Shown one piece after another: positions 9,526-42,563 of a DNA stretch of 64,000 nt. The stretch is from the NCBI GenBank assembly GCA_036477295.1, contig JAZGDE010000046.1:13135-77134 (forward strand), read 5' to 3'. The first letter of the stretch is position 1. Each line of letters begins with the position of its first letter. This stretch comes from Bacteroidota bacterium. Lineage in GTDB: Bacteria > Bacteroidota > Ignavibacteria > UBA10030 > JAZGDE01. The position numbers and the translations under genes are program-made. A model generated the notes under the pieces. That model was not told the DNA's origin. It searched no databases and saw nothing but the letters and a program-made list of their open reading frames with translations.

Positions 9526-10065
9526 CTACGTTGAGCCGATGTAGAGAGTTCCGGTGTGGACTTTGATCCCAAGCAGTTTCAAATAGAGGAACAGCTGCTC
9601 CTTGTGAATCAGCTGATGCTCCACCATGTGGATACAGAGTCTCCAGATTTTCTGACGGCCAATCATCGGTGAATCCAATTCTTTGTTCCGAAATTCATCC
9701 TCCGTAAGATGCCGGATGGTCTCGATCACCCTCCGCTTGGACTCCTCCAGAATCTCAACCGCCTTCTTGCCAGTTATAGGTTCCGTTCGCCGATTGCGCA
9801 AAAAAATTTCGCGCATCGAGCGAACACCCCAATCGCCCGTGCCAAATCCCCGTGCGTACAGACCAAGTGAGAGGGCAAGATGATGGAGAAGTCGCCCGAG
9901 CGTGAACATACCCTCCACCGGTGCATAGTCGAGTTTGTCGTCTGGCGCCAGCTTCATGAGTGCTTCACAAGGACGGAGCACCCAATCCAGGTACTCAAGA
10001 AATTCTTGCTTTGTCACAGGGAGTGCCTCCGATGGCAAAGTCCCGATGGGGACTTCGTCCATCAC
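9526..10065 (-). CDS. DinB/YfiT-like (DinB_2 superfamily) metal-dependent protein
   Basis: 179 aa, four-helix DinB-like pattern with conserved His residues (HHLALSL, HMVEHQLIH). Confidence 0.6.
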   Translation of the reverse strand: MMDEVPIGTLPSEALPVTKQEFLEYLDWVLRPCEALMKLAPDDKLDYAPVEGMFTLGRLLHHLALSLGLYARGFGTGDWGVRSMREIFLRNRRTEPITGKKAVEILEESKRRVIETIRHLTEDEFRNKELDSPMIGRQKIWRLCIHMVEHQLIHKEQLFLYLKLLGIKVHTGTLYIGST

Positions 10066-10112: not shown

Positions 10113-10973
10113 ATGTCAGTTTTTCCACGGAAGATCTTGATGACGAGAACAATCCGATTCGGACACAGTCCCGATCCTGATGACGCCTTCATGTTCTACG
10201 GAATCGCTTTGGGACAAGTGTCACTCGACGATATCCACATTGAACATCTGCTCGAAGACATTCAATCGCTCAACCAGCGAGCGCTGAGGGGTGAGCTGGA
10301 AGTCACAGCAATTTCCGCCCACGCGTATGCGTACGTCGCCGACCGGTACTGGGTCATGAAAACCGGAGCAAGTATGGGAGAGGGATACGGCCCAGTCATG
10401 GTCTCTCGGCATTTCCGCACGGTCGAAGATCTCCATGGTAAGTTGGTTGGAACACCTGGCCCTCTCACCACGGCGACGCTGCTTTTCAAACTCTTCACCG
10501 AGAAGATGGACAACGTCGATCTGCCGTTCGACGACATCCTGCGAGCGCTCGAGGAGGACCAGATCGATGCCGGGGTGCTCATCCACGAAGGACAAATTAC
10601 CTACGAAGCGAGCGGCCTGCACAAAATCCTTGACTTCGGGGAGGTCTGGAACGTCCAGACCGGCGGTCGTCCGCTTCCACTCGGACTCGATGTCGTCCGG
10701 AAAGATCTGGGTGACCAGCTCGCCGGTCAGCTCTCTTCCGCGCTTCGGCGCAGCATCGAATACGGGTACGAGCATCAGGAGGAAGCAGTGGAGTATGCCC
10801 TACGGTATGGCCGCGGAATCGACAAAGATCTCTGCAGGCGGTTCATTAAGATGTACGTGAATGAGCTTACGGTGGATATGGGTAAGGCTGGTCAAGAATC
10901 GCTCGAGGAGCTTTACACTCGTGCCTACCAGAAGGGCCTGATTCCCCTCAAGCCGATACTCCGAATCTGCTGA
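10113..10973 (+). CDS. mqnD: MqnA/MqnD-family menaquinone (futalosine pathway) protein, MqnD-like (1,4-dihydroxy-6-naphthoate synthase candidate)
   Basis: Motif IRFGHSPDPDDAFMFYGI resembles the MqnD SPCPNDTF N-terminus; periplasmic-binding-protein-like fold. Probable true start at M10 (position 10140). Confidence 0.6.
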   Translation: MSVFPRKILMTRTIRFGHSPDPDDAFMFYGIALGQVSLDDIHIEHLLEDIQSLNQRALRGELEVTAISAHAYAYVADRYWVMKTGASMGEGYGPVMVSRHFRTVEDLHGKLVGTPGPLTTATLLFKLFTEKMDNVDLPFDDILRALEEDQIDAGVLIHEGQITYEASGLHKILDFGEVWNVQTGGRPLPLGLDVVRKDLGDQLAGQLSSALRRSIEYGYEHQEEAVEYALRYGRGIDKDLCRRFIKMYVNELTVDMGKAGQESLEELYTRAYQKGLIPLKPILRIC

Positions 10974-11039
10974 ATTTTTCTCCCGCCGTCAGTACACTCT
11001 TCCGTCGACAACTCAACTCGTTGATGAAGAGCGGATTGC

Positions 11040-12131
11040 TCAAGCCGCCTCGACGTCGTCGAAGACGCGCAAGATCTGGTAGAGGGTCGTCCGCTGTGCT
11101 GGCACAAATCCTGCCTCACGAATCAGTGCAATCACTTCCTCAACGTTCGTCTTATTGACGAAGTTCGCAGCCGCATGGACGTTCTCTTCATACAGAGTTC
11201 CACCGAAATCATCAGCCCCGAAGTGGAGACCTATCTGCCCAGCTTTCTTTCCCTCTGAGAACCACGAAGCCTGAATGTGCGGAAAGTTGTCAAGATAGAT
11301 GCGCGCGAGAGCAAGAATCTGCATGTATCGTGTAGACGTTGCGTAGTGAGGAATAATTTTTTCTAGCGGTGTATTGCCTGGCTTGAAGCTCCACGGCACG
11401 AACGCGGTAAACCCCCAGGTCTCGTCCTGCAGCTGTCGGATGCTCTCGAGATGCTGGATGATGTCCTCATATGTCTCGATATGACCGTACATCATCGTCG
11501 CAGTTGTCTTAAACCCAATCCGATGTGCCTCACGCATGACGTTGAGCCAGTCCTCCGAGGTTCCTTTCTTGAAACTAATTTTCTTCTTCACACGATTGGA
11601 GAGGATCTCCGCTCCGCCACCCGGTATCGTGCGAAGTCCAGCATCCCACAATCGCTGCAGCACGCCCCGGACCATCAGACCCGAGACTTCGGACATCCCG
11701 ATGATTTCAGATGTCGAGAAGAAATGCGGGTGAATCTCTGGAACCTCCTCCACTGTTCGACGAACTAAGTCGATGTAGTAATCGAACGGCAACGCAGGAT
11801 TAACCCCTCCCTGGAGCAGTACCGTCGTCACTCCTTTCACTGCAGACTCCTTGAACTTCTGGATCATGTGGTCCACGGTGTAGGTGTACTCACCCTTTTC
11901 TCCTGGATGTCGATAGAATGCACAGAAGATGCAATCGACATTGCAGATGTTCGTGTAGTTGGGGTTTGTATCGACCGCGAACGTCACCCACGGCTTGGGA
12001 TTCTTCTGGTAGCGGATCTCCTTCGCCAACTCACCGAGGTCAAGCAGTTCCGCTTCCTGAAGAAGGGTTAATCCTTCTTCTGAAGAAATCCTCTCACCGG
12101 TTCGAACTTTCTTGAGAATATCTCTTACCAT
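11040..12131 (-). CDS. mqnC: Radical SAM futalosine-pathway enzyme, MqnC-like (cyclic dehypoxanthinyl futalosine synthase) or second MqnE-type
   Basis: 363 aa. CNVDCIFCAF (CxxxCxxC) radical-SAM motif. MqnC/MqnE family architecture (GGAEIL..., MMYGHIET). Confidence 0.75.
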   Translation of the reverse strand: MVRDILKKVRTGERISSEEGLTLLQEAELLDLGELAKEIRYQKNPKPWVTFAVDTNPNYTNICNVDCIFCAFYRHPGEKGEYTYTVDHMIQKFKESAVKGVTTVLLQGGVNPALPFDYYIDLVRRTVEEVPEIHPHFFSTSEIIGMSEVSGLMVRGVLQRLWDAGLRTIPGGGAEILSNRVKKKISFKKGTSEDWLNVMREAHRIGFKTTATMMYGHIETYEDIIQHLESIRQLQDETWGFTAFVPWSFKPGNTPLEKIIPHYATSTRYMQILALARIYLDNFPHIQASWFSEGKKAGQIGLHFGADDFGGTLYEENVHAAANFVNKTNVEEVIALIREAGFVPAQRTTLYQILRVFDDVEAA

Positions 12132-12221
12132 CGTACCTCTCGCCTGAGATGGAGATGTCGGACATTCTTCATTCTCTTCCCCGCTCTCTTTTTTGATGCT
12201 CGATGTCAGGAGTCAGTGTCG

Positions 12222-14222
12222 TCAGGGGCGAGCAACCGACTCAACCTCTTCCACCAGGCGCCGGAAGACCCGCATCGCCTTGCGTTCTCGTTCACCGAGG
12301 TGGTAGTTGAAGCCCTCAAGATACTCGATTACTTCTGCCGGTGAAAGTCCGACCTGCTTTCCGTTCAGCCACAGAGTCCTATTCCGACCCTGTTCTCCCT
12401 CCAAGGCTTGAGCAGAGACGAAATTGCCCGCCGCATTGATGGCGGACCTTCGGTCCGCGAAATGTAAGTCGGATCGTTGTTCTGACACAATGATGTCGGA
12501 TCTTCGACCTTCAGCGAAGAAATCCTCCTCTGCCTTCGCGAGCGACGTTTCGATGATCTGTGCCAACTCCACTTTCGTCTCAGCAGGCAGCGATTTCTTC
12601 ACTGCCCAGACCGCAAAGACAAATGGGAGCTTTTGCCATTCATACCACTCCTTCGCGAGGTCGAAGACGAGCTCGAATCCCTCGAGTCCGAATTTGTTCC
12701 TGCGCAGTGCATCGTCACCGATGAGCAACACAGCGTCATACTTCGAGTATTCATTGACTCCCGAATGCATCCGTTCAAGGTTTGCCTCCACTCCGTATTT
12801 CTTTTCTAAGAGGATCTTGAGGAGTTTTACCGATGTTGCAGTCTCGTCGGTGATCCCGATGAGCTTCCCGTGGAGGTCACCCCAGCCATAGTTAGAAAAA
12901 AGCATGACACTTTTCACCTGATCGCGGGTAGCGATACACCAGCTCATCAGTTCGAGGTGATGTTCCTGCTGAAAATAGTCGATGAGAGAGAACAAACCGG
13001 CGTCGATCTGACCTTGGGAGGAGAGCATACCCATTCGTCTCGGTGCAATCGGGAGAATTTTGAATTGCCTGCGTTCGAAGTGCTGGTAGTACGGCACCGA
13101 GTTCAGGTATGGAATTTTCCCGATCACGTTATCCGTGTAGACATTCAGCGGGTTGTAATACACATCGCGCTCAACGGGGATTTTGCCTGCATCCCGGATG
13201 ATGTTGAGGATCTGGTCCTTCGCAAGCTTCATCGGGCTGATCGCACCAGCGTCGTGTGCGATGTGCTCCTCGCCAACCGTGCCATCCATATCGTCGGCAC
13301 CGAAGTTGAGCGCGATCGCCGCCACCTCCTCTGTGAGCATGACCCAGTAGGCTTTGATGTGCGGGAAGTTATCCAGCATCAGGCGAGAAATCGCAATCGT
13401 CTTCAGATCATCGATGGCCGAGGTGAACTGGGAACGTGCTTTGATTCCGGTGTCGCCGGGCTGGAACGCCAGCGGAATGAAGGTCAAGAATCCGCCGGTC
13501 TCATCCTGCAACTCCCGAAGTTTAATCATGTGCTCGATGCGTTCTTCAATCGTTTCGATATGACCGTAGAGCAATGTTGCGTTGGTCGGGATCCCCATCC
13601 GGTGAGCGGTCCGATGAATGTCCAACCACACCTTCGCGCCAATTTTTTGATTGAAGAGCAGCCGACGGACTCGTTCCGAGAATACCTCCGCACCACCTCC
13701 GGGCATCGTTCGCAATCCTGCCTCCTTCAACTGCAGGAGGACTTCCTCGATCGGCATTTTGAACTTCTTATGGTAGAAGTCAATCTCAACGGCAGTAAAC
13801 GCTTTGATATCGATGTTCGGAAACGAGGCCTTAATCGAGCGAAGAATACCCAGATACTGTTCCCATGGCCAGTCGGGCGGCATGCCGCCCGTGATTTGAA
13901 CCTCGTGCAAGTCCGGAGTGAGCTTAGAAAGAATTTCCTCCTGTGTCATCTCGTAGGCATCCGGCTGATCGCGCTTCGTTGCAAAGTCGCAGAACTTGCA
14001 GGCGAGCACACAGATGTTTGTAGGCTCGATCTTGCGGTTCAGGACAAAGTACACGGCATCGCCGCTCTTCAAGCGCTGGACGGCTTGAGCCATTTTGCCA
14101 AGCGAGATGATGTCCTGTGTCGCGTAGAGTGCCACACCGTCTTCCAGCGTCAGGCGCTCGTCGACTTGCACTTTCTCCCAGATGGGGATGAGATTGCGGT
14201 CACGAAAGGCAAGGTTGCTCAT
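12222..14222 (-). CDS. Fusion protein: N-terminal radical SAM MqnE-like (aminofutalosine synthase) domain plus C-terminal MqnA-like (chorismate dehydratase) domain
   Basis: 666 aa. The N-terminal ~350 aa has CVLACKFCDF and MqnE/MqnC-family blocks (GGAEVF, LLYGHIETIEE). The C-terminal ~290 aa has MqnA hallmarks: GKIPYLNSVPYY, LPIAPRRMGMLSSQGQIDAGLFSLIDY, PFVFAVWAV. Confidence 0.8.
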   Translation of the reverse strand: MSNLAFRDRNLIPIWEKVQVDERLTLEDGVALYATQDIISLGKMAQAVQRLKSGDAVYFVLNRKIEPTNICVLACKFCDFATKRDQPDAYEMTQEEILSKLTPDLHEVQITGGMPPDWPWEQYLGILRSIKASFPNIDIKAFTAVEIDFYHKKFKMPIEEVLLQLKEAGLRTMPGGGAEVFSERVRRLLFNQKIGAKVWLDIHRTAHRMGIPTNATLLYGHIETIEERIEHMIKLRELQDETGGFLTFIPLAFQPGDTGIKARSQFTSAIDDLKTIAISRLMLDNFPHIKAYWVMLTEEVAAIALNFGADDMDGTVGEEHIAHDAGAISPMKLAKDQILNIIRDAGKIPVERDVYYNPLNVYTDNVIGKIPYLNSVPYYQHFERRQFKILPIAPRRMGMLSSQGQIDAGLFSLIDYFQQEHHLELMSWCIATRDQVKSVMLFSNYGWGDLHGKLIGITDETATSVKLLKILLEKKYGVEANLERMHSGVNEYSKYDAVLLIGDDALRRNKFGLEGFELVFDLAKEWYEWQKLPFVFAVWAVKKSLPAETKVELAQIIETSLAKAEEDFFAEGRRSDIIVSEQRSDLHFADRRSAINAAGNFVSAQALEGEQGRNRTLWLNGKQVGLSPAEVIEYLEGFNYHLGERERKAMRVFRRLVEEVESVARP

Positions 14223-14243
14223 GCTGCGTTCATATATCTTAGA

Positions 14244-14483
14244 TTAGCCCCAAACAAAAACCCCGCCGATGATGAAACCACTCCAGAACCGAATTTGACC
14301 TCCCGATGAAACCAATCCGCGACGCTCAGCCCATACGCCGCATTGGACCCAAAATCCTCGGTCTACCACTCCGGAACACAATGTTGGGCTGAAACCAGTT
14401 GAAAAGAAGCCATGGATCCAGTTCGTGTAACCCGTGATGCCGATGGAGAATGCCAGTGGTACGATGTAAAAGATCATATACAT
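14244..14483 (-). CDS. Possible small hydrophobic (membrane) protein inside the mqn operon
   Basis: 79-aa ORF with two hydrophobic segments (MYMIFYIVPLAFSIGITGY..., GFIIGGVFVWG) in the 430-bp gap between ubiD and the mqnE-mqnA fusion. No family recognised. Confidence 0.3.
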   Translation of the reverse strand: MYMIFYIVPLAFSIGITGYTNWIHGFFSTGFSPTLCSGVVDRGFWVQCGVWAERRGLVSSGGQIRFWSGFIIGGVFVWG

Positions 14484-14650
14484 CGCGAAGGCGATGGCAA
14501 ACCAGTTCCACTGAAACTTACTCCCCCCAACCCGACGGTTGTACTGCTGCAGCCATAACGCGCCTTCTTGATTGTGGATTGTGAATCGTAGAAAATCATC
14601 ACGATTACGTTAAACCATGTTGTGAGAGGAACAATGGCGTTTCGTCAGTG

Positions 14651-16468
14651 TTACTTCCAGTATGAATCCCAACGCTCATCGACACGCTTCGTGATTTTCT
14701 CTGTCATCACCAACGACTCGGGATACCCTTTTTTCCACGTCGCGTCGATCCCCAGAATGCCTTTGTAGACTGGCGAGATTCCTGTGGTTCCCGACGGCAG
14801 ACGCGGGAGTTTCTGCTCCGAGAACAAGACGTCGCGCTCGCAATCGAAACGGGTGAAAATCCCCCAGATGTAACTTACCGAGTCGTGCAAGTCCACATCC
14901 TCACTCACGGCGGCAATGATCCTCAAAGCCTGAAGCTCTTTTTTCCGAACGAGCTTTTCGACGACCGTCCGTCCGTCCTTCCGCACTTTCACCAGCAAGA
15001 GAGTTTCCTCAACAAGATTTGTCTCGACAATCCTTCGGTCGAACTGTTTGAGATGAGAAATCCCGGACTGGAGGGCTCTTCGTTTTCGCGCTTCCGATTC
15101 CGGGTCTCTCGCTCTTCCACCTCGTTGTTTGCGGGTCGCGTCGATTACCATCTTGCTCCCAAGCTCCATTGTGTAGCTCGTGAAATCAAGAGTGTCGAGC
15201 GGCACCTTGGGAATCAGAACAAAATCATAATGCGGATCGAAGTGATCTCGGATCTCCCGGAGTACGGTTTGCCAGTCCTTCGGGTCGATTTCCGATGAAA
15301 CGAGAACGGCGCACTTCGTCAGCGACAACTGTCCCTCGCCCATCAACCCGAGCGCTGCTTTCATCGCTTCCTTCTGATACCGCTCTTCCACCGACACGAC
15401 GAGCAGGTTGTGGAATCCCGCTTCGTAATACGCCCAAAGGCTTCGTACCTCTCGATGCACCAACCGAATGAGTGGACCAAGAATCTGCTGGGTTGCGTCA
15501 CCCAGATACTTATCCTCCATCGGAGGTTTCCCAACGATCGTCGCCGGATAGATTGGGCTCTTCCTCCTTGTTATTCCCTTAAGATGGAACACCGGGAACC
15601 GCGCTGCATGAGAATAATGCCCGAAATGGTCACCGTACGGACCCTCCATCCTCCGCTTCTTTGGGGGGACGATACCCTCAAGGACGAACTCCGCGTTCGC
15701 AGGCACGTCAATCGAGATGAACTGACCCCTTGTCATCGGTATTCGCTTCCCTCGCAGGAAGGAAGCAAACATCACCTCGTCCATTCCTTCTGGCAGTGCG
15801 GCGACCGTCGCAATCAGCAGCGCGGGATCCGTGCCGAGAGCCACTGCCACTTCGAGGGGCTTGCCGAGCTTCTCTGCCTGGAAGTAATGAAACCCACCTC
15901 CCTTCTGAATCTGCCAGTGCATGCCGGTACTCTGCTTGTCATACACGTGCAGACGATAGATACCAACGTTGCGCATTTTGCTGAGTGGATCCTCCGTGAT
16001 CACCTGGCCGAGCGTGAGGAACCGTCCGCCATCCTTCGGCCAACAGAACTGAATGGGCAACGCATCGAGGTCGGGTGATTCGGAGACTTCCTGAGCTATC
16101 CCCATCTTGACGCGCTTCGGTCGGGCACTGAGCAGTCGCCTTACGATCGTCCGATGTTCGAAAAGAACGTTGAGCTTCGGTGGGATGATTCGATCAAAAA
16201 ACGTGATGAGCTCCTCGCCGATCCTCTCCGGATGTTTTCCGAGCGCAAGCTCAACGCGTCGCTCACTTGCCAGAACGTTCATCGCGACGGGGAAGCGAGA
16301 GTTCTTCACTTTTTCAAAGAGCACTGCGGGCCGACGCTCTTCCAAAGCGCGAACCGCAATTTCCGTCATCTCAAGATGTGGATCAACCTCAACTTTAACT
16401 CTGTGGAGCTCTCCAATCGATTCCAGATAACGAACAAATTCGCCAAGGGCAGGAAAAGTCATCCGCAT
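14651..16468 (-). CDS. ubiD: UbiD-family decarboxylase (menaquinone-pathway MqnL-type / 3-polyprenyl-4-hydroxybenzoate decarboxylase family)
   Basis: 605 aa, UbiD family throughout (GGRFLTLGQVITEDP, GPYGDHFGHYS). Confidence 0.85.
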   Translation of the reverse strand: MRMTFPALGEFVRYLESIGELHRVKVEVDPHLEMTEIAVRALEERRPAVLFEKVKNSRFPVAMNVLASERRVELALGKHPERIGEELITFFDRIIPPKLNVLFEHRTIVRRLLSARPKRVKMGIAQEVSESPDLDALPIQFCWPKDGGRFLTLGQVITEDPLSKMRNVGIYRLHVYDKQSTGMHWQIQKGGGFHYFQAEKLGKPLEVAVALGTDPALLIATVAALPEGMDEVMFASFLRGKRIPMTRGQFISIDVPANAEFVLEGIVPPKKRRMEGPYGDHFGHYSHAARFPVFHLKGITRRKSPIYPATIVGKPPMEDKYLGDATQQILGPLIRLVHREVRSLWAYYEAGFHNLLVVSVEERYQKEAMKAALGLMGEGQLSLTKCAVLVSSEIDPKDWQTVLREIRDHFDPHYDFVLIPKVPLDTLDFTSYTMELGSKMVIDATRKQRGGRARDPESEARKRRALQSGISHLKQFDRRIVETNLVEETLLLVKVRKDGRTVVEKLVRKKELQALRIIAAVSEDVDLHDSVSYIWGIFTRFDCERDVLFSEQKLPRLPSGTTGISPVYKGILGIDATWKKGYPESLVMTEKITKRVDERWDSYWK

Positions 16469-16563
16469 TCATTGTTCACACTGACCTCACAGACCTGTCG
16501 TCAGGCGTCTGCGCTCGTCGCATCTGAGGACAAACAGCCTCATCTGCGCAGCGTGCGGAGATT

Positions 16564-17115
16564 TCATTCCAGTTCTCCGGAGCGCCAGCCCTTCGATGAT
16601 CTCACGCCGATCACCCCCATGACTTTATCGACAAAGGCTTTCACATATTCTTCGACCGTTTTCGGCACGAAGTACAACGGCGGTGCTATCGGCATAATGA
16701 TCGCACCGTCGCGCGAGAGCAACGCACACTGTTCGAGCGATGTCGTCGACATCGGCGTTTCGCGGACACACAGGACCAACTTATACCGTTCTTTCAATGC
16801 AACCTGCGCAGTTCGGGTGATCAACGTATCTCCGATCCCCGAAGCGATTTTTCCAATCGTACCGGTCGAGCACGGGATAATAACACACGCATCAAACCGA
16901 TTCGATCCTGAAGCAAGCGGTGCAGTCAAATCCTCGTCAGAAAACTGGCGCTTCACGTACTGGTGCAAGTCTTTGTCGGTCATCCGGAGCTCATCTTTCA
17001 GCAAGACTTTTCCCCACTTGCTGACGACAAGGAATTTATCCGGCGGGCACTGTTTCAGAAATTCCACGGCGTAGATCGCGCCGGAACAGCCGGTGATGCC
17101 CACGACGGTTCTCAC
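16564..17115 (-). CDS. ubiX: UbiX-family flavin prenyltransferase
   Basis: Flavoprotein fold VVGITGCSGAIYAVEFLK. Start assigned to GTG at 17115, which overlaps the ubiA TGA stop (GTGA). The ORF-track ORF extends further upstream without a Met. Confidence 0.8.
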   Translation of the reverse strand: MRTVVGITGCSGAIYAVEFLKQCPPDKFLVVSKWGKVLLKDELRMTDKDLHQYVKRQFSDEDLTAPLASGSNRFDACVIIPCSTGTIGKIASGIGDTLITRTAQVALKERYKLVLCVRETPMSTTSLEQCALLSRDGAIIMPIAPPLYFVPKTVEEYVKAFVDKVMGVIGVRSSKGWRSGELE

Positions 17116-17954
17116 ACCCACAGTACTCCCACGAAGACCATCCCGAACACGACGAATCCGAGCGCCGCATTGATCTTGAAGAACGCTAGCTCGACTTCTG
17201 CAGCTCGCCTCTGTTCCAGATAGAGCAGCCAGCCAGTGATCAGAAGGAGTGGTACCGCAATCAACACTTTGATATGATAGAAATAGAGAACCACAAGAAC
17301 TGCGTACGCCAGCCCATGAATCCACGCAGACACGGCGAGCGCGCGCTTCCGGCCAAGGTGCGCAACGAGCGAATGGAGATTCTCCTTCCGGTCAAAATCC
17401 TCATCGAGTATCGCATAGATAATGTCGAAACCGCTCACCCAGAGCAGTGTAAACGTCGAGAGAAGCGCTCCAGGCAACAGGTCGTCAAACGATTGCTTGA
17501 CCGCAAACCAGCCTCCGAGCGGAGCCATGGCCAACCCGAGTCCCACACCGAAATGCGCAAGGCGCGTGAACCGCTTCATGTACGGATACCCCACAAAAAT
17601 GATCAGCGGGATGGGTGAGAGCAAAAGCGTAAAGCTTGAAATCGCGTACGCAGCGAGAAAATAGAGCGTAAGTCCCAAGAGGAGAACAACCAATGCTTCC
17701 ACCGTCGTCATCCGTCCAGCGGGCAGCTCACGGTTGGCAGTCCGAGGATTCCGACGGTCGATTTCACGATCGATAATTCGATTGAGTGTCAGAGCAACGA
17801 TCCGGGCCCCAACTCCGGCGACGAACACGAGGCCAAGTAGCTTCAGGGAAGGAATCGCCTTCGATGCTAGGAACACACCGCTGTAGATCAGGGGCAGAGA
17901 AAAGAGCGTGTGTTCGACCTTGATAAAATTGAAGTATTTTCTTAACAGCAACAA
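17112..17954 (-). CDS. ubiA: UbiA-family polyprenyltransferase (menaquinone-pathway MqnP-type)
   Basis: 280 aa, multi-TM, UbiA Asp-rich motifs (NRIIDREIDRRNPRTANR, DIIYAILDEDFD). Confidence 0.85.
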   Translation of the reverse strand: MLLLRKYFNFIKVEHTLFSLPLIYSGVFLASKAIPSLKLLGLVFVAGVGARIVALTLNRIIDREIDRRNPRTANRELPAGRMTTVEALVVLLLGLTLYFLAAYAISSFTLLLSPIPLIIFVGYPYMKRFTRLAHFGVGLGLAMAPLGGWFAVKQSFDDLLPGALLSTFTLLWVSGFDIIYAILDEDFDRKENLHSLVAHLGRKRALAVSAWIHGLAYAVLVVLYFYHIKVLIAVPLLLITGWLLYLEQRRAAEVELAFFKINAALGFVVFGMVFVGVLWV

Positions 17955-19152: not shown

Positions 19153-21604
19153 TCAGCCTTTTTGCCTTTTCAGTTCTTCCAGTTCTGCCTCGATGGCGCC
19201 AAGAACCTCCTCATCGGTTTCCCGTGCCTTCAGGTTCATGAGCGTTTCGATCACCCGGTCGCCACCGATCCTGTCCAGCATGCGAATCGCCGCGAGCCGG
19301 ACCTCCTTCATTTGATCTTCCACCAGTCCGATGGTCCAATCCTGCACTGCCTTCTCGTTCTCGACGAAGCTTCTTAATCCGGCGAGCGCTACCTCGCGAG
19401 TCTTCTTCGGCTGACCGTATGTGGAGTACTTGATCAGATGCGGAACTGCCCGTTCGTCCTCGAGCGACGCCAGCACGGAAAGGGCTGCGTTACAAACACC
19501 ATTGTCGTACGAAGGGGTCTTGAGGTGCGAAACTGCAACATCGTAAGCGCTTGCTGAGTCGACCTTCGCATACGCCTTCAACGCGTCAGCGTTCACGACG
19601 TAGCTTGGATCTTCCTCCATTGCCTGCCGCAGGAAGTTCCGCACCCGTTGACCTGGAAACCGGCTCAGGTTGTTCACGACTGCCTGCCGCACCTTCGACT
19701 TCTGGTCTTTGTACGCCTCAATGAGTGCATCTTCGGCTTCTGGTATCGTCATTCTTCCGATCGCGTTCACCGCCTCCATCCGGACGGCCCAGAAGGGGTC
19801 TGAAAGCACAACATCTCGGAAGACCCGGAACGACGCTCCAGTGGACACCGCATCCGAGTCGGATCGCAACTGCTCCAACGCCGTCAAGCGTTCGACCGCA
19901 TCCCCACTCGACCGGAGTTGATAGATGAGTTCCTTGCGCGATCTTGGAAACCGAACTTCCTTGAGAATCCAATTTCCCTTGTCGAACACGACGAGAAGTG
20001 GTTTGGAGTCAACTGGGATGGTGAACTCCTCCTGCTTCTCTGAGATCAGCACCCGATGCGTTCGGGCGCCGGACGCAGTGGTAATCTCAATATCCAACGG
20101 CGTTCGAAAGATGTTCGTCAAGCTGTCAATTTTCTGCACCTGCTTTATTGACAGCGTAATGCTCCTTGCTGACTCATCCCAGTGAGAGGTCACCTCGAAC
20201 TCCGGATATCCTGCCTTATAGATCCACTGGTCGAAGAACCACGACAGGTTTTGTCCCGTCGATTCCTCGATCGCAAGTTTGAAGTCGTTTGTTTCGACGC
20301 TCCGATATTGGTACTGATGAGCGTAGTGGCGAATCGCTTTCCAGAACAGTTCGTCACCAAGTACAAAGCGAAGCATGTGCAGCACCATCGCTCCCCGTTC
20401 AAAGAGGTTCGCCCTGAATGAATTCACACTCACGATCGGTTTCCTCCCTGAGGTTTTGTCAGAACTGATTGCGGCACGCTGATCCCGATACGTGTTGTAA
20501 GCAAACTCATCCGTGCCGAGCCGGTATTCCTGGTGGAGAGCCTCAAAATACGTGGCGAAGCCTTCATTCAGCCAGAGATGCCGCCAATCCTTACACGTGA
20601 TTAAGTCACCCCACCACTGATGGGCAAGTTCATGGGCGATCAGACCTCGACTGCTCCGATCGAGCTCCGCGCGCTTGTCAAATACAGCAGACTTGTCGTT
20701 CAACGTTGTCGCTGAGGTGTTCTCCATGCCACCCCACATGAAGTCTGCTATGGTGACCTGAGCATACTTTTCCCATGGATACACGTATCCGATTTTCTGA
20801 GAAAAAAATTCGACCATGTCTGCGGTCTCCCGGAAGATCCGTTTCGCGTCCTCAACCTGATGAGGGTACACGTACGATGAGGACGGGAATATTGTTGTAC
20901 CGGTCTTCAAGGATCTCGTAGACCCCGGCGGCCAGCATGATGAGGTATGACACGTGCGGCTTCGACTGCTTCCAGTGGTATGTTCTTGTTCTGTCCTTCT
21001 TGTTCTGCTTTACGCTAACAAGCTCCCCGTTCGAAAGGACGGTGTAGTCGCCCCGGACCGTCGCGATGACCTCCGAAGTTGCGCGATCGTTGGGAAAGTC
21101 GTAGCATGGAAACCAGAAGTGGTTCTCCTCCGCTTCTCCCTGCGTCCAGATTTGCCACGGCTTTGTCGGATACGCACTGTCGGGCTGGACAAAGTACAAT
21201 CCCTTCTTTGGAACGCTGCTGTACACCGTTGAAATTGTAATCGTGTCCCGGAAACTGTAAGTCCTATCAAGCCAGATGCGCAGCACTTTCGGGAGGACTG
21301 CATACCGCAATGAGTTGCTGCTCCCGATCCTAACTAAGTGCACATCGAGTCCCTCGGCGTCGAAGTCAAGTGAATCAAGCTGCGGAAGCAACGGAACGAG
21401 CGTCGTGTTCACCGTTCCGATCACCATCTTCTTTGGCTCATCGAATTGCACTTCGATCCGATAGTGAAGGACGTCGTAGGTTCGACTTCGTGCTTCGCCA
21501 GGTGTCCATTCCGAGAACAGCTGCTGCGCTTCCGCGAAGGCCCAGGCTCCAAAAGATAGGGTAAGAAGAGAAGTGAGAATGCGAAACATCCGAAATTGAT
21601 TCAT
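19153..21604 (-). pseudogene. M1-family aminopeptidase (aminopeptidase N-like) split by a +1/-1 frameshift near 20855-20910
   Basis: The N-terminal ORF has a signal peptide MNQFRMFRILTSLLTLSFGAWAFA and the M1 N-domain, and ends ...NNIPVLIVRVPSSG*. The overlapping downstream ORF (TTG start) carries GGMEN and HELAHQWWG...E zinc motifs. The two reading frames overlap by 58 nt, so one gene is interrupted. Confidence 0.7.
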
Positions 21605-22047
21605 GGTTCTGTTCAGGAAGGATGATCGGATTACCGTGATAGGCCGACGGATGAAGGTACCGAATAATCTCGGATTATGCAATCGATTGATTCTGCGCTA
21701 CCACGGCAAGATGTTCTCCAATACGAGTGATCGCACACATCGAGTGGAATGGATGTGGGGTCAAAGCGATCATATTTGTTTCTTCCGAAGTCAACGCACA
21801 AAGCAACTCCTCTGCTCGGCATCTGGAGAATACAGACCACTGGTAGAGTTCCTGTGGGATACGCAGACGCGTTCCATCGATGCAGCCGTCAATTTGGCGT
21901 TCGCAGTTCAAATCAGCAAGCTCAAGTTAGCAAGCACGACCGTACAACACACAGAGAATATTTGATTTTCTTGGTGGTTTTGGTTAGAATTAGACACTTT
22001 CGTAGACAGCACCCTAGTCCGGTTAACTATAGGGAGACATTCAGTCT

Positions 22048-29513: not shown

Positions 29514-30026
29514 ATGAAACCCTACAAAACACTTCTCGAAGAATCTCTTGAAGCCTGGGCGTACGCACGCCAGGGCGTGATCGACGAAGTGAAGAACATC
29601 CCCGCAAAGGATTTCAGCTTCCGGGCGACGCCGCAAAACCGGAGCGTGGTCGAGCTGGTGCAGCACATCATCGAATCGGGTCTGATGATGAGCGGCGAGC
29701 TCACGCGGCCGGACGGAAATTTTCTGCGCGAGTCGTACCCTCGGTTTATCAAGGAATATGCGAGTCACGTTCACAAGAGCGCGTCGAAAAGCGACTTGCT
29801 GGCATTATTGAAATCCAGCCATGCACAAGGTGACAGGAAGTTCCGCGAGGTTGGAGAGCTCTTCATGCTGCAACACATTACCCGCTTCGATGGCCTCAAG
29901 GGCACGCGGCTCGCATGGATGGGACATGGCATTTCGCACGAAGAGTACCACCGCGGGCAGTTGGCACTCTATGCCCGGCTCCTTGGTCTCGTGCCAGCGC
30001 TTACTAGACAAATCATGGGTGAATGA
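29514..30026 (+). CDS. DinB-family (DinB_2) protein
   Basis: 170 aa. Conserved His pattern (VQHIIESG, HGISHEEYHRGQL). Confidence 0.65.
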   Translation: MKPYKTLLEESLEAWAYARQGVIDEVKNIPAKDFSFRATPQNRSVVELVQHIIESGLMMSGELTRPDGNFLRESYPRFIKEYASHVHKSASKSDLLALLKSSHAQGDRKFREVGELFMLQHITRFDGLKGTRLAWMGHGISHEEYHRGQLALYARLLGLVPALTRQIMGE

Positions 30027-37489: not shown

Positions 37490-37834
37490 TTACCGAAAAA
37501 TGATGTCCTTCACGACTTCGTGCTTCATCACTGCGTTGATCTGCTTGAGAATGTCCCTCTTCCGCAGTGTCAACTCATTCCTCCACGTTGGCCTGTCAAC
37601 GTTGACGTAGAGCTTGCCATTTTCGATCCTCATCGCCTCGGCCCGACGCGCAATCCTCTCCCCGACAATCTCTGACCACTGCTGGACGATCCGTTCTTGA
37701 TCGTAGCGCTTCTTTAGCCCAAGGTCGTCGATGAGCCTCTGGATGATGGCCGCAACCGACTCAGGCTTCGGTCTCCTCATAACGGATGATTCCCCCGCTG
37801 AGACGAATTTCCTTCCAGTCTTCCTCGCCGTCAA
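37490..37834 (-). CDS. dciA: DUF721 domain protein (DciA-like, replicative helicase loader candidate)
   Basis: 114 aa. W..IVGERIA...GKLYVNVD..TWRNEL pattern. Canonical recF-DUF721-gyrB position. Confidence 0.65.
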   Translation of the reverse strand: MTARKTGRKFVSAGESSVMRRPKPESVAAIIQRLIDDLGLKKRYDQERIVQQWSEIVGERIARRAEAMRIENGKLYVNVDRPTWRNELTLRKRDILKQINAVMKHEVVKDIIFR

Positions 37835-38900
37835 TCAATTCCTTGAAGCGCACATGGTATCGGTACTCGTGATGAATGTTTGCCCCAACTTGTCCAGAAC
37901 CCCCAGCAGCCTTCGGGATCTTTCCAGGTCTAACTCACCGAACACATCATCGAGCAACACGAGAGGCTTTTCACCCAGGACCCCTTGCAGGTAGAGAAAT
38001 TCTGCAAGCTTCAGAGCAATCAAAAACGTCTTATGCTGACCCTGCGAAGCATAGCGCCGGATGTCAAGCCCATTGATCCGCAGATGGAAATCATCGCGAT
38101 GGGGACCCACCAACGTCGAACCGAATTTCCTCTCTTCCTCTACCCGCTCACCAAGCTCGAGTTGAAGGAGTTGCCCGATCTCTTCCGCCGTCAAACTCCG
38201 GTCAACCTCCTCGAATGGCACATAGGACAGCGCTGGTTCCTCGTCGAGCCCCATGAGCCAGCCGTATGTTTCCATGATGTGATTTCGAAATTCGCCAACA
38301 AACTGCAGACGCTGGGCAACGAGGCGGCTTCTGTACCTGACTAATTGCTCATTCCAGGATTCCAAGGCCTCGGGGCTCACTGAGCGTCCGGCCAAGCCAT
38401 TCGACAGCACTCTGTTCCGCTGCTTCACGACCTTGCGGTACTCGACGAGATCTGCACAATATCCCGCGCTCGCTTGGCAAATAACCAGGTCGACAAACCT
38501 TCGTCGTTCCGCAGGAGCTCCCCGCGTAATGCCACCCTGTTCGGGCCAGAGAATCACAGCCGGATACTTCCCGATCATCGATGACAGTCAGTCGACTCGC
38601 CCTCCGTTGACTCGCAAAAGCTTCTCCCTTCTGATGCCATCGAACCTCACATGAACGACGCTCTTTACTCCGCTGTCCGTCCGGAACTTTCCTTCGACTA
38701 CAAAATAATCCTTCCCGATGGACAGAACAACCGCATCGCTGTCCGCGCTGAAACTCCTCGTCAGCGCCAGAAAGGATATCGCCTCGAGCACACTTGTCTT
38801 GCCGGCCCTGTTCGGTCCGACGATGAGGTTTGCGCGTGGAGCCCACGCAAACACAGAATGCTCGTGATTGCGGAAGTTCTCGTAGGCTCGCTCTAAGGAT
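37835..38900 (-). pseudogene. recF: recF disrupted: in-frame TGA (38588-38590) after ~108 codons, and no start codon for the conserved N-terminal strand
   Basis: Minus-strand translation reads ...RVNGGRVD*LSSMIGKYPAVILWPEQ... in a single frame. Upstream of the first possible start (GTG 38854) the frame encodes SVESLERAYENFRNHEHSVFAWAPRANLIVGPNRAGKT, the conserved RecF N-terminus, with no ATG/GTG/TTG in frame. The ATG just upstream belongs to the dnaN C-terminus (..MPVRLNP*). Confidence 0.75.
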
Positions 38901-40005
38901 TCAACCGAACAGGCATCACAAGCATCAAGAACTCTTCCTGCTCTCTCTGCGATCCAGGCTGAACGAGCGCAGCGCGCGTCGACTCGCTGAACAGGAACAG
39001 CGCTTCGTCAGTATCGATGTGCGACAGAACATCAACGAGGTAAGCCGCGTTAAATCCGATCTCGAGCGGCTCGTAGTCATACTGGCACATCATCACTTCC
39101 CGCGCCTCTCCGCCGAAGTCGATATCCTCAGCGGAAAGCTTCAGCTCGTTTTTCTTCAACGAGAGTCGAACCTGGTGTGTAGTGAGACTCGAATACAGTG
39201 AGACCCGCCGGACCGATGCCAGCATGTCGTTCCTGTTGATCACCATTCGCTTGTCGTTGTCCTTTGGAATCACGCTCTCGTAGTTAGGATACTTCTCCTC
39301 GATTAAGCGCGAGATGAGCGTCGTGTTCCCGAACCGAAACATTACATGGGAATCATTGAGGAAAACGGTGAATGCCGATTCATCCGACGATTTCGCAATG
39401 ATGCTGAGCGCCTTTCCCGGTATCACGATGTCTTTCTCCCCATTTTTCAGGGGACTCTTCCGCTGGCTTAGCTTCACCAAGCGATGCCCGTCTGTCGAGA
39501 CAGCACACAGCTCGTCCTTCTTCATCTGAAATAACACTCCCATCATTGCCGGCCGGAGCTCATCCGTACTCACCGCAAACACTGTTTTACTGATCATTCG
39601 GCGCAGTATCTCTGCCGGCAACGTGATCTGTTCGTCCCCTTTAATCTGAGGTACGCTCGGGAACTCCTCGCTCGATTCACCAGTCAGTCGATACTCACCG
39701 GTCTCCGTCACGATCGTGACTTTGTTTGAAGGATCTGCAGTCAGCGTCACCTGCGTCTCCGGGAGTGCACGTACTGTCTCGACCACCCGACGCGCCGGCA
39801 CTGCAATCTTGCCGTCTTCGATACCCTTGACCTTGGTCGTGACCGACAGTGAAAGCTCGAGATCTGTCGCAGTAATCTTCAACTCGTCGCCTTCAAGCTC
39901 GAGCAGGAGATTTTCTAGGATAGGGAGTGTTGATTTCGATGGAACTACTCCACTTGTTTTGGAGAGTGCTTTTTGAAGTTCAGTGCTCGAAACGGTGAAT
40001 TTCAT
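38893..40005 (-). CDS. dnaN: DNA polymerase III beta sliding clamp
   Basis: 370 aa, DnaN three-domain pattern, MKFTVSSTELQKALSK start. Confidence 0.9.
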   Translation of the reverse strand: MKFTVSSTELQKALSKTSGVVPSKSTLPILENLLLELEGDELKITATDLELSLSVTTKVKGIEDGKIAVPARRVVETVRALPETQVTLTADPSNKVTIVTETGEYRLTGESSEEFPSVPQIKGDEQITLPAEILRRMISKTVFAVSTDELRPAMMGVLFQMKKDELCAVSTDGHRLVKLSQRKSPLKNGEKDIVIPGKALSIIAKSSDESAFTVFLNDSHVMFRFGNTTLISRLIEEKYPNYESVIPKDNDKRMVINRNDMLASVRRVSLYSSLTTHQVRLSLKKNELKLSAEDIDFGGEAREVMMCQYDYEPLEIGFNAAYLVDVLSHIDTDEALFLFSESTRAALVQPGSQREQEEFLMLVMPVRLNP

Positions 40006-40679
40006 CCGTTACCTCCTGTCTGGCCAGTTTGAAAAATCTAACCTTGAAATTTACGAATTTCATCCCCCAAATTCAAGCGCCGAAACTTGCTAACTCCAAT
40101 ATTTTCCAACATGTTATCCCTCCTGGCACTTCATCTTTAGCCTCCCATCACCCCAGACCACATTTATTATCCAGTCTGGACTGAATGTTGTTCTTCACAA
40201 GCATTCAGTTTCTATTCTCGCAGAGCTTTTAACTCCCCAAACATCTTATTCACCGATCACATTTGCCTCCTCCCAGCCGTTTGCTAACACACAGCAAGCC
40301 AAGACCACTTGCATTCTTTGAGAACAATATTGTACCGGCGAGTTTTGAACCAAACCACTTCATTATTGTTATAAGCCTTATAAAATGAAAAAGATTAGTA
40401 TTACTATTAGACCCGTGAGTATGTTAATAACTGTTTAATATTCGCGGATTTGACCGTAATGGTGGGAAATTTGTGTTCCTCATATAGCTAAAGAGTCTGG
40501 ATAATGGTCTTACTTTCCCACATCCGGATTGTGATTCCGATACGACAGGATTGTGAAATCAAGTTGTGAACAGTGTTTCTGGATCCTATTCACAACGTGT
40601 CAACAAGATACTGAGGGAGAAAACAAAGCCCAACCTTGGAAGGATGGGCTTCGCGTGGAAATGGATGAGCGCAAGCGGG
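40006..40679. promoter_or_regulatory. AT-rich 674-bp dnaA-dnaN intergenic region, candidate oriC DNA-unwinding module
   Basis: Markedly AT-rich relative to flanks (ttattgttataagccttataaaatgaaaaagattagtattactattag...). Degenerate DnaA-box-like 9-mers (ttatccagt, tattcacaa). No protein-coding ORF. Confidence 0.4.
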
Positions 40680-42155: not shown

Positions 42156-42563
42156 GCTTTTGTCTCGGCTGAAAAACGTGAAAAAAGAGTCCCCACACCT
42201 GCAAACAACTTATTCACATGGGCAGCGCCATTGCCCTCGCTTGACCACTCTATGGCCAAATGGGAACTGACAACGTGGACACCCCTTGTTCACGAGAGCA
42301 AGTTATCTCTAACCTCTTAAACAATCTAGGGTTATGGGAGGAGGCTGAGCGGTTATCCACAAGGTATTGGCGGCGCGTGAAGGCCAACCGGCACGTCAAA
42401 ACTGCACCTTGAACAAGGCCCAAAAAGTAAGTAACATTTTATCAACAAACGATTTATGCCGTAATTCATACAGATTATACAAAGTTTCGGGTGTGTAGGC
42501 AAGGGAAAAATTTTTGTTTTTTTCGGTTTGAGTTGTATTTGTGGCACATTTTTTATATGTTGA
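42156..42563. promoter_or_regulatory. dnaA/rpmH divergent control region with DnaA boxes and AT-rich tract (oriC / dnaA autoregulation candidate)
   Basis: Perfect TTATCCACA at 42336-42344. One-mismatch boxes TTATTCACA (42204-42212) and TTATCAACA (42439-42447). AT-rich run 42450-42560. Confidence 0.55.

Follow-up and report, generated by a model that had tools for sequence, protein, structure and literature searches.

Is the recF gene beside dnaN in an uncultivated, Ignavibacteria-like lineage of Bacteroidota still able to yield a protein, or has it died? RecF is an ABC/SMC-like ATPase of the RecFOR recombination-mediator pathway, and in the stretch of DNA analysed here (64,000 nucleotides, called the window throughout) its reading frame is visibly broken. 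The initial annotation regarded it as a genuine pseudogene, inactivated by two lesions within an otherwise intact dnaA-dnaN-recF-dciA-gyrB-gyrA block. The surroundings bear out this description: dnaA, dnaN, dciA, gyrB and gyrA are all intact, DnaA, DnaN, DciA and GyrB score as full-length proteins, and the order dnaA-dnaN-recF-(dciA)-gyrB holds in the window and in about 100 related loci. The DnaN relatives of the window are all uncultivated Bacteroidota or Ignavibacteria-type MAGs. Four genomes form a broken clade, namely the window, JGI Ga0247390 (L125), ENA ZHEN22-1 (L063) and MAG K_3_bin.67 (L064), and the nearest lineage with an intact gene is MAG SCS3bin.55 (L001; DnaN identity 87%), whose 380-aa recF begins 12 nt past dnaN. 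Comparison of these sequences indicates that recF of the window is very probably a non-functional, decaying pseudogene.

Anatomy of the recF remnant

The features of the locus, all on the minus strand, are the following.

37761-38883, minus strand: probable recF pseudogene remnant between the deletion junction and the ancestral TGA stop, recognised by the TIGR00611 match and by DNA alignments with intact and broken orthologues
38882-38883, minus strand: junction of a 24-nt deletion found by alignment, only in the window genome; ATG and codons 2-8 are gone
38795-38818, minus strand: Walker A motif GPNRAGKT with the Arg codon AGG at 38807-38809, from a homologue-column comparison and alignment
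38588-38590, minus strand: in-frame TGA at codon 106, the same in ZHEN22-1 and JGI Ga0247390; Arg in K_3_bin.67 and L001
38546-38548, minus strand: TGG (Trp), the change S120W; Ser in 92% of homologues, Trp otherwise only in the JGI contig L125
37851-37854 (about), minus strand: 2-nt TG insertion (ATG[TG]CGC), only in the window; the frame of the last ~35 codons is shifted
37835-37837, minus strand: premature TGA in the shifted frame, 3' end of the 247-aa ORF
38893-40005, minus strand: dnaN, intact, 370 aa, TIGR00663 298 bits, TAG stop at 38893-38895
37490-37780, minus strand: dciA (DUF721), intact, 96 aa, start overlapping the ancestral recF stop

A translation of the remnant in which the stop is masked and the C-terminal part put back in frame matches TIGR00611 at 292.7 bits (cutoff 172) over profile positions 7-339 of 339. 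The remnant resembles an intact RecF in this full-length homology, in its position between dnaN and dciA/gyrB, and in its Walker B motif (LVLLDDVFGELD; LLDDV) and ABC signature (ASQGQHKT; SQGQ), both of which are kept. It differs from one in lacking an uninterrupted ORF with a start codon, in the internal TGA, in a C-terminal frameshift and in a Walker A motif that reads GPNRAGKT, with Arg for Gly, instead of the canonical G-x-N-G-x-G-K-T.

Alignment with the orthologues resolves three disabling lesions, so that the earlier count of two was right about the stop and the lost start and overlooked the TG insertion. The in-frame TGA at 38588-38590 is the only one inside the minus-strand frame, and its site carries CGA in K_3_bin.67 and AGA in L001. 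Upstream, the nearest in-frame stop lies at 39008-39010, and no ATG, GTG or TTG occurs between it and the GTG at 38854; the sole near-cognate codon in this interval is an ATC at 38951-38953. The 24 nt missing at the 38883/38882 junction, GATGACTTTACGGGAGCTGAAACT, are present in ZHEN22-1, the JGI contig and K_3_bin.67. With these nucleotides recF lost its ATG and codons 2-8, and the peptide ESLERAY, which had been taken for the conserved RecF N-terminus, is thus the 3' end of dnaN and the spacer, read in phase.

The third lesion, in the context ACCATG[TG]CGC, causes a +2 frameshift at about 37852, and the ORF therefore ends early at 37835-37837. In the ancestral frame the protein would run on to its end …TDTMRFKELIDGEEDWKEIRLSGGIIRYEETEA and stop at the TGA at 37761-37763, overlapping the dciA ATG (37780) by 20 nt. 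The remnant thus extends over 37761-38883 and not, as had been proposed, over 37835-38960. Its open pieces are an N-terminal ORF of 88 aa and a C-terminal one of 247 aa (37835-38578).

Both lesions private to the window recur in the proteins MEE9225225.1 and MEE9225226.1 of an NCBI MAG (79,160-bp contig), the former having the shifted tail TMCASRN and the latter the junction peptide ERAYENFRN. As this MAG may stem from the same reads as the window, it is not an independent confirmation. In the NCBI annotation, MEE9225226.1 is a 121-aa 'AAA family ATPase' that starts from a non-canonical ATC within dnaN, followed by a 247-aa 'RecF', and neither has a pseudogene flag; the present analysis would correct these fragments to a pseudogene.

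Broken and intact recF in related genomes

A protein search with the repaired RecF returned only fragments above 90% identity, and intact 380-aa proteins at 69-77%. On the ENA ZHEN22-1 scaffold_10 (219 kb), recF has an intact ATG, the TGA of the window and a private AAG->TAG change near the C-terminus, which was found again on a separate 726-bp NCBI contig. The copy on JGI 3300022665 Ga0247390_1022068 likewise has an intact ATG and carries both the TGA and the Ser120->Trp change of the window. K_3_bin.67 shows a different set of lesions: its start codon is changed from ATG to ATA, a 62-nt deletion shifts the frame, the invariant Walker-A Asn is replaced by Ser, and the site of the TGA is CGA. 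The Logan assemblies of runs SRR29324603 and SRR29324601 contain exactly this sequence.

Placed on the DnaN tree, the lesions form a nested series, the TGA being common to the window, JGI and ZHEN22-1, W120 to the window and JGI, and the start deletion and TG insertion confined to the window. Over 16.7 kb aligned between the window and ZHEN22-1, all indels in coding regions fall within recF; several small ones at 40311-40376 lie in the dnaA-dnaN spacer (40006-40679, 674 nt). The ORF fragments left by the lesions differ from genome to genome (88+247, 105+229+30 and 214+116 aa), and no truncated product is therefore conserved. According to the initial annotation, close relatives carrying the same sequence with evidence of expression, such as readthrough, would speak against a pseudogene. 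Close relatives do share the TGA, but readthrough is excluded by the additional stops and frameshifts in their copies.

A second contig of the K_3_bin.67 MAG (L002; 97% DnaN identity) ends within dnaN and hence has no recF, the recF of this MAG being on L064. Both K_3_bin.67 contigs break within dnaN and have divergent ends (L002:10898-10930 and L064:1-30), and the JGI contig L125 folds back to a reversed dnaN after recF codon ~128 (L125:6177-6376); these are contig-end artefacts. When JGI metagenome contigs were scanned with the repaired RecF, no relative came up; the DnaN scan yielded L069 and L070 and added no genome to the broken clade.

In L001, L067 and L068, the nearest outgroups, recF is intact. 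The source of L067 is the very metagenome that yielded ZHEN22-1, and that of L068 is run SRR29324607, whose accession lies close to those of the K_3 runs. Between the repaired RecF of the window and the intact 380-aa proteins of these nearest outgroup lineages, identity is 74-77%. Beyond these, roughly 100 Ignavibacteria-like dnaN loci were compared with the RecF query, which aligns in a single frame free of stops everywhere except in L025 (DMPG01000341.1, MAG UBA8401). There, at about 11223-12138, the query aligns in two frames over 291 of its 380 residues, which may reflect another frameshifted recF or an assembly error.

Another loss is seen in L070 (Ga0209109_10007054; DnaN identity 77%), where a deletion of ~790 nt in the middle of recF has joined codons 1-16, in the wrong frame, to about codons 279-380 (L070:4111-4480), accompanied by a TGG->TGA change. 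Judged by its placement in the DnaN tree, this loss is independent of that in the window clade.

Selection, conserved sites and the order of events

Pairwise omega was estimated by the Nei-Gojobori method for three of the broken recF copies and, in the same comparisons, for eight flanking genes. The recF values were 0.62, 0.59 and 0.38 against 0.09-0.26 in the eight neighbours, with only 18-30 substitutions per pair. The excess of non-synonymous changes in recF over the pooled neighbours gave Fisher p values of 0.04 and 0.012. Compared with the neutral expectation, one of the three pairs was significantly lower, and the remaining two showed no difference. By these substitution counts, selection on recF is relaxed relative to the neighbouring genes; as omega stays below 1, the loss of constraint would be recent or partial.

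The broken copies were further compared with 118 full-length homologues at conserved sites. At Walker-A position 33 all broken copies have Arg, whereas 117 of the 118 homologues have Gly and the remaining one has Ala. A second change is shared in the same way, with Arg in all broken copies where 117 of the 118 homologues have Lys. Further changes at sites conserved to 92-100% are S120W and G192R in the window, P121L and A297T in ZHEN22-1 and N32S in K_3. Gly->Arg in Walker A is the only lesion-like change common to all four broken copies. RecF needs Walker A to bind ATP and to dimerise (PMC5794780), and Gly33->Arg is therefore a plausible first inactivating hit and the best candidate for it. 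This role is a conjecture, the more so as one intact relative has Ala at the position.

A sequence of events can be proposed from these data. Constraint on RecF would have been lost in, or shortly before, the common ancestor of the window, JGI Ga0247390, ZHEN22-1 and K_3_bin.67, possibly with the Walker-A Gly->Arg change as the first hit. CGA->TGA would then have arisen in the ancestor of the window, JGI and ZHEN22-1, and S120W in that of the window and JGI. Private lesions would have followed: the 24-nt start deletion and the TG frameshift in the window, AAG->TAG in ZHEN22-1, and ATG->ATA with the 62-nt deletion in K_3_bin.67. The data fit just as well with recF having been inactivated separately in two sublineages. 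On the pseudogene reading no full-length RecF can be made, and the loading of RecA at daughter-strand gaps must do without it; it would presumably depend on just RecO and RecR, as it does in other bacteria that lack recF.

A rival reading is that the organism possesses an intact recF and that the lost start, the TGA and the shifted frame are errors of a metagenome contig. The window does come from a metagenome assembly, it contains one more 1-nt frameshift, in an M1 peptidase gene, and its private recF lesions recur only in a MAG probably built from the same data. Sequencing or assembly error is nevertheless very unlikely, because the TGA is also present in ENA and JGI assemblies of other samples and the different lesions of the relatives are reproduced across several assemblies. 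Moreover, of the four coding lesions detected across the 64 kb, three sit in the 1.1 kb of recF, the 16.7-kb comparison with ZHEN22-1 shows no coding indel outside this gene, and dN/dS of recF is elevated. The early preference for a genuine pseudogene over a sequencing error is in this respect well founded: the stop occurs in two other projects, the relatives bear extra lesions, selection is relaxed and the outgroups are intact.

The single unbroken frame across the TGA could also suggest recoding, that is, a functional RecF still produced by decoding TGA as Sec, Trp or Gly or by a programmed frameshift. The chance of this is close to nil. TGA is the commonest stop in the window, where it ends 27 of 51 long ORFs including gyrA, gyrB and yidC, and this usage speaks against recoding; relatives have an Arg codon (CGA or AGA) at this site, the start codon of the window copy is deleted, and some relatives have a TAG, a 62-nt deletion or an ATA instead, with no conserved recoding signal. 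Neither a conserved SECIS or slippery site nor an in-frame TGA at a conserved position in other housekeeping genes was seen. A truncated or split RecF, expressed from the 247-aa C-terminal or the 88-aa N-terminal ORF with some residual or new function, would fit the annotation of the fragments as proteins by gene callers and NCBI, the omega below 1 and the persistence of the remnant undeleted in four of five haplotypes. It merits very little credence, as the fragment boundaries vary from relative to relative with no shared ORF kept, the middle 790 nt are deleted in L070, and Walker A is parted from Walker B and the signature, three motifs on whose joint action an ABC ATPase depends (PMC5794780). 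Decay of a non-functional recF accounts best for the locus.

Known cases of recF loss and further observations in the window

The initial annotation also regarded the loss as a notable change of repair pathway, which is an overstatement. Rocha et al. 2005 found RecF to be the least frequent RecFOR protein of their survey, absent from 29 genomes as compared with 19 for RecO and 10 for RecR (PMC1193525), and it is the component of RecFOR most often absent in bacteria. As in those recF-less bacteria, recF is gone in the window clade and the surrounding replication genes stay; the difference is that the loss has here been caught midway, with a near full-length remnant and nested lesions. Decay of recombination genes is documented in host-restricted bacteria, an example being Wolbachia ruvA, where Ka/Ks was relaxed in a subclade before disabling mutations appeared (PMC4224334). 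The window recF likewise combines relaxed constraint with later disabling mutations. Unlike the host-restricted Wolbachia, the window encodes futalosine menaquinone synthesis, a T9SS-sorted protease, SurA and YidC and has 53% G+C, a content that does not suggest the reduced genome of a symbiont. The case looks like a gene-specific loss in free-living bacteria. Given that RecF was already known to be often absent and that recombination-gene decay is on record, it is a new instance of a known event, and no new kind of system is revealed. No relevant paper on the loss of recF in Ignavibacteria turned up in a literature search, and a Pfam search of about 49 ORFs detected no recO, recR or recA in the 64-kb window.

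The value of the locus is that it shows, as a natural case in uncultivated bacteria that live freely, a gene in the course of dying; five haplotypes with nested lesions allow the events to be ordered. It also adds a lineage in which gap repair would operate without RecF, and is thereby relevant to the question of what role RecF has in addition to RecOR. A wider proposal, that RecF is dispensable throughout a family-level free-living Ignavibacteria-like lineage and was lost at least twice independently, by point lesions in the window clade and by the ~790-nt deletion in L070, with sister lineages of the same habitats keeping recF, is tentative and rather doubtful. If true, it would imply a lineage-specific change in the targeting of RecA to post-replication gaps, for example loading by RecOR only or another factor in place of the RecF-DnaN link.

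Several features of the window stand apart from recF. Three DnaA-box-like sites lie upstream of dnaA (42210-42447), including a perfect TTATCCACA at 42353; across the window there are 15 such sites, which is not above chance. No tRNA gene and no Rfam family at the gathering threshold was found in the 64 kb. Two DinB-family genes are located at 9526-10065 and 29514-30026, and the futalosine-pathway menaquinone gene cluster occupies 10113-17954.

The gene for an M1-family aminopeptidase (19153-21682, minus strand) is split into overlapping ORFs of 276 aa (Peptidase_M1_N) and 585 aa (Peptidase_M1 plus HEAT repeats) by a frameshift at 20878 that consists of one extra A (CCTC[A]TCG). The JGI contig Ga0247390_1000037 (L128; 99.4% identity over 12.8 kb) is in frame at this site and lacks a single nucleotide elsewhere in the gene, at window position 20150. 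Across the 12.8 kb no further indel separates the window from this contig. K_3_bin.67 has an intact M1 aminopeptidase of 817 aa. The gene may be a second one decaying in the sublineage, or the indels may be two coincident assembly errors.

A protein look-up with the MoxR of the window gave the public contig JAZHCF016340604.1 (GCA_044345325.1) as its sole match. The window may derive from the sister assembly, that of the 79,160-bp MAG contig, since JAZHCF016340604.1 differs from it at two positions in 13.1 kb, both synonymous: 36060 (gyrB codon 467, GGT vs GGG) and 33127 (gyrA codon 682, ACG vs ACA).
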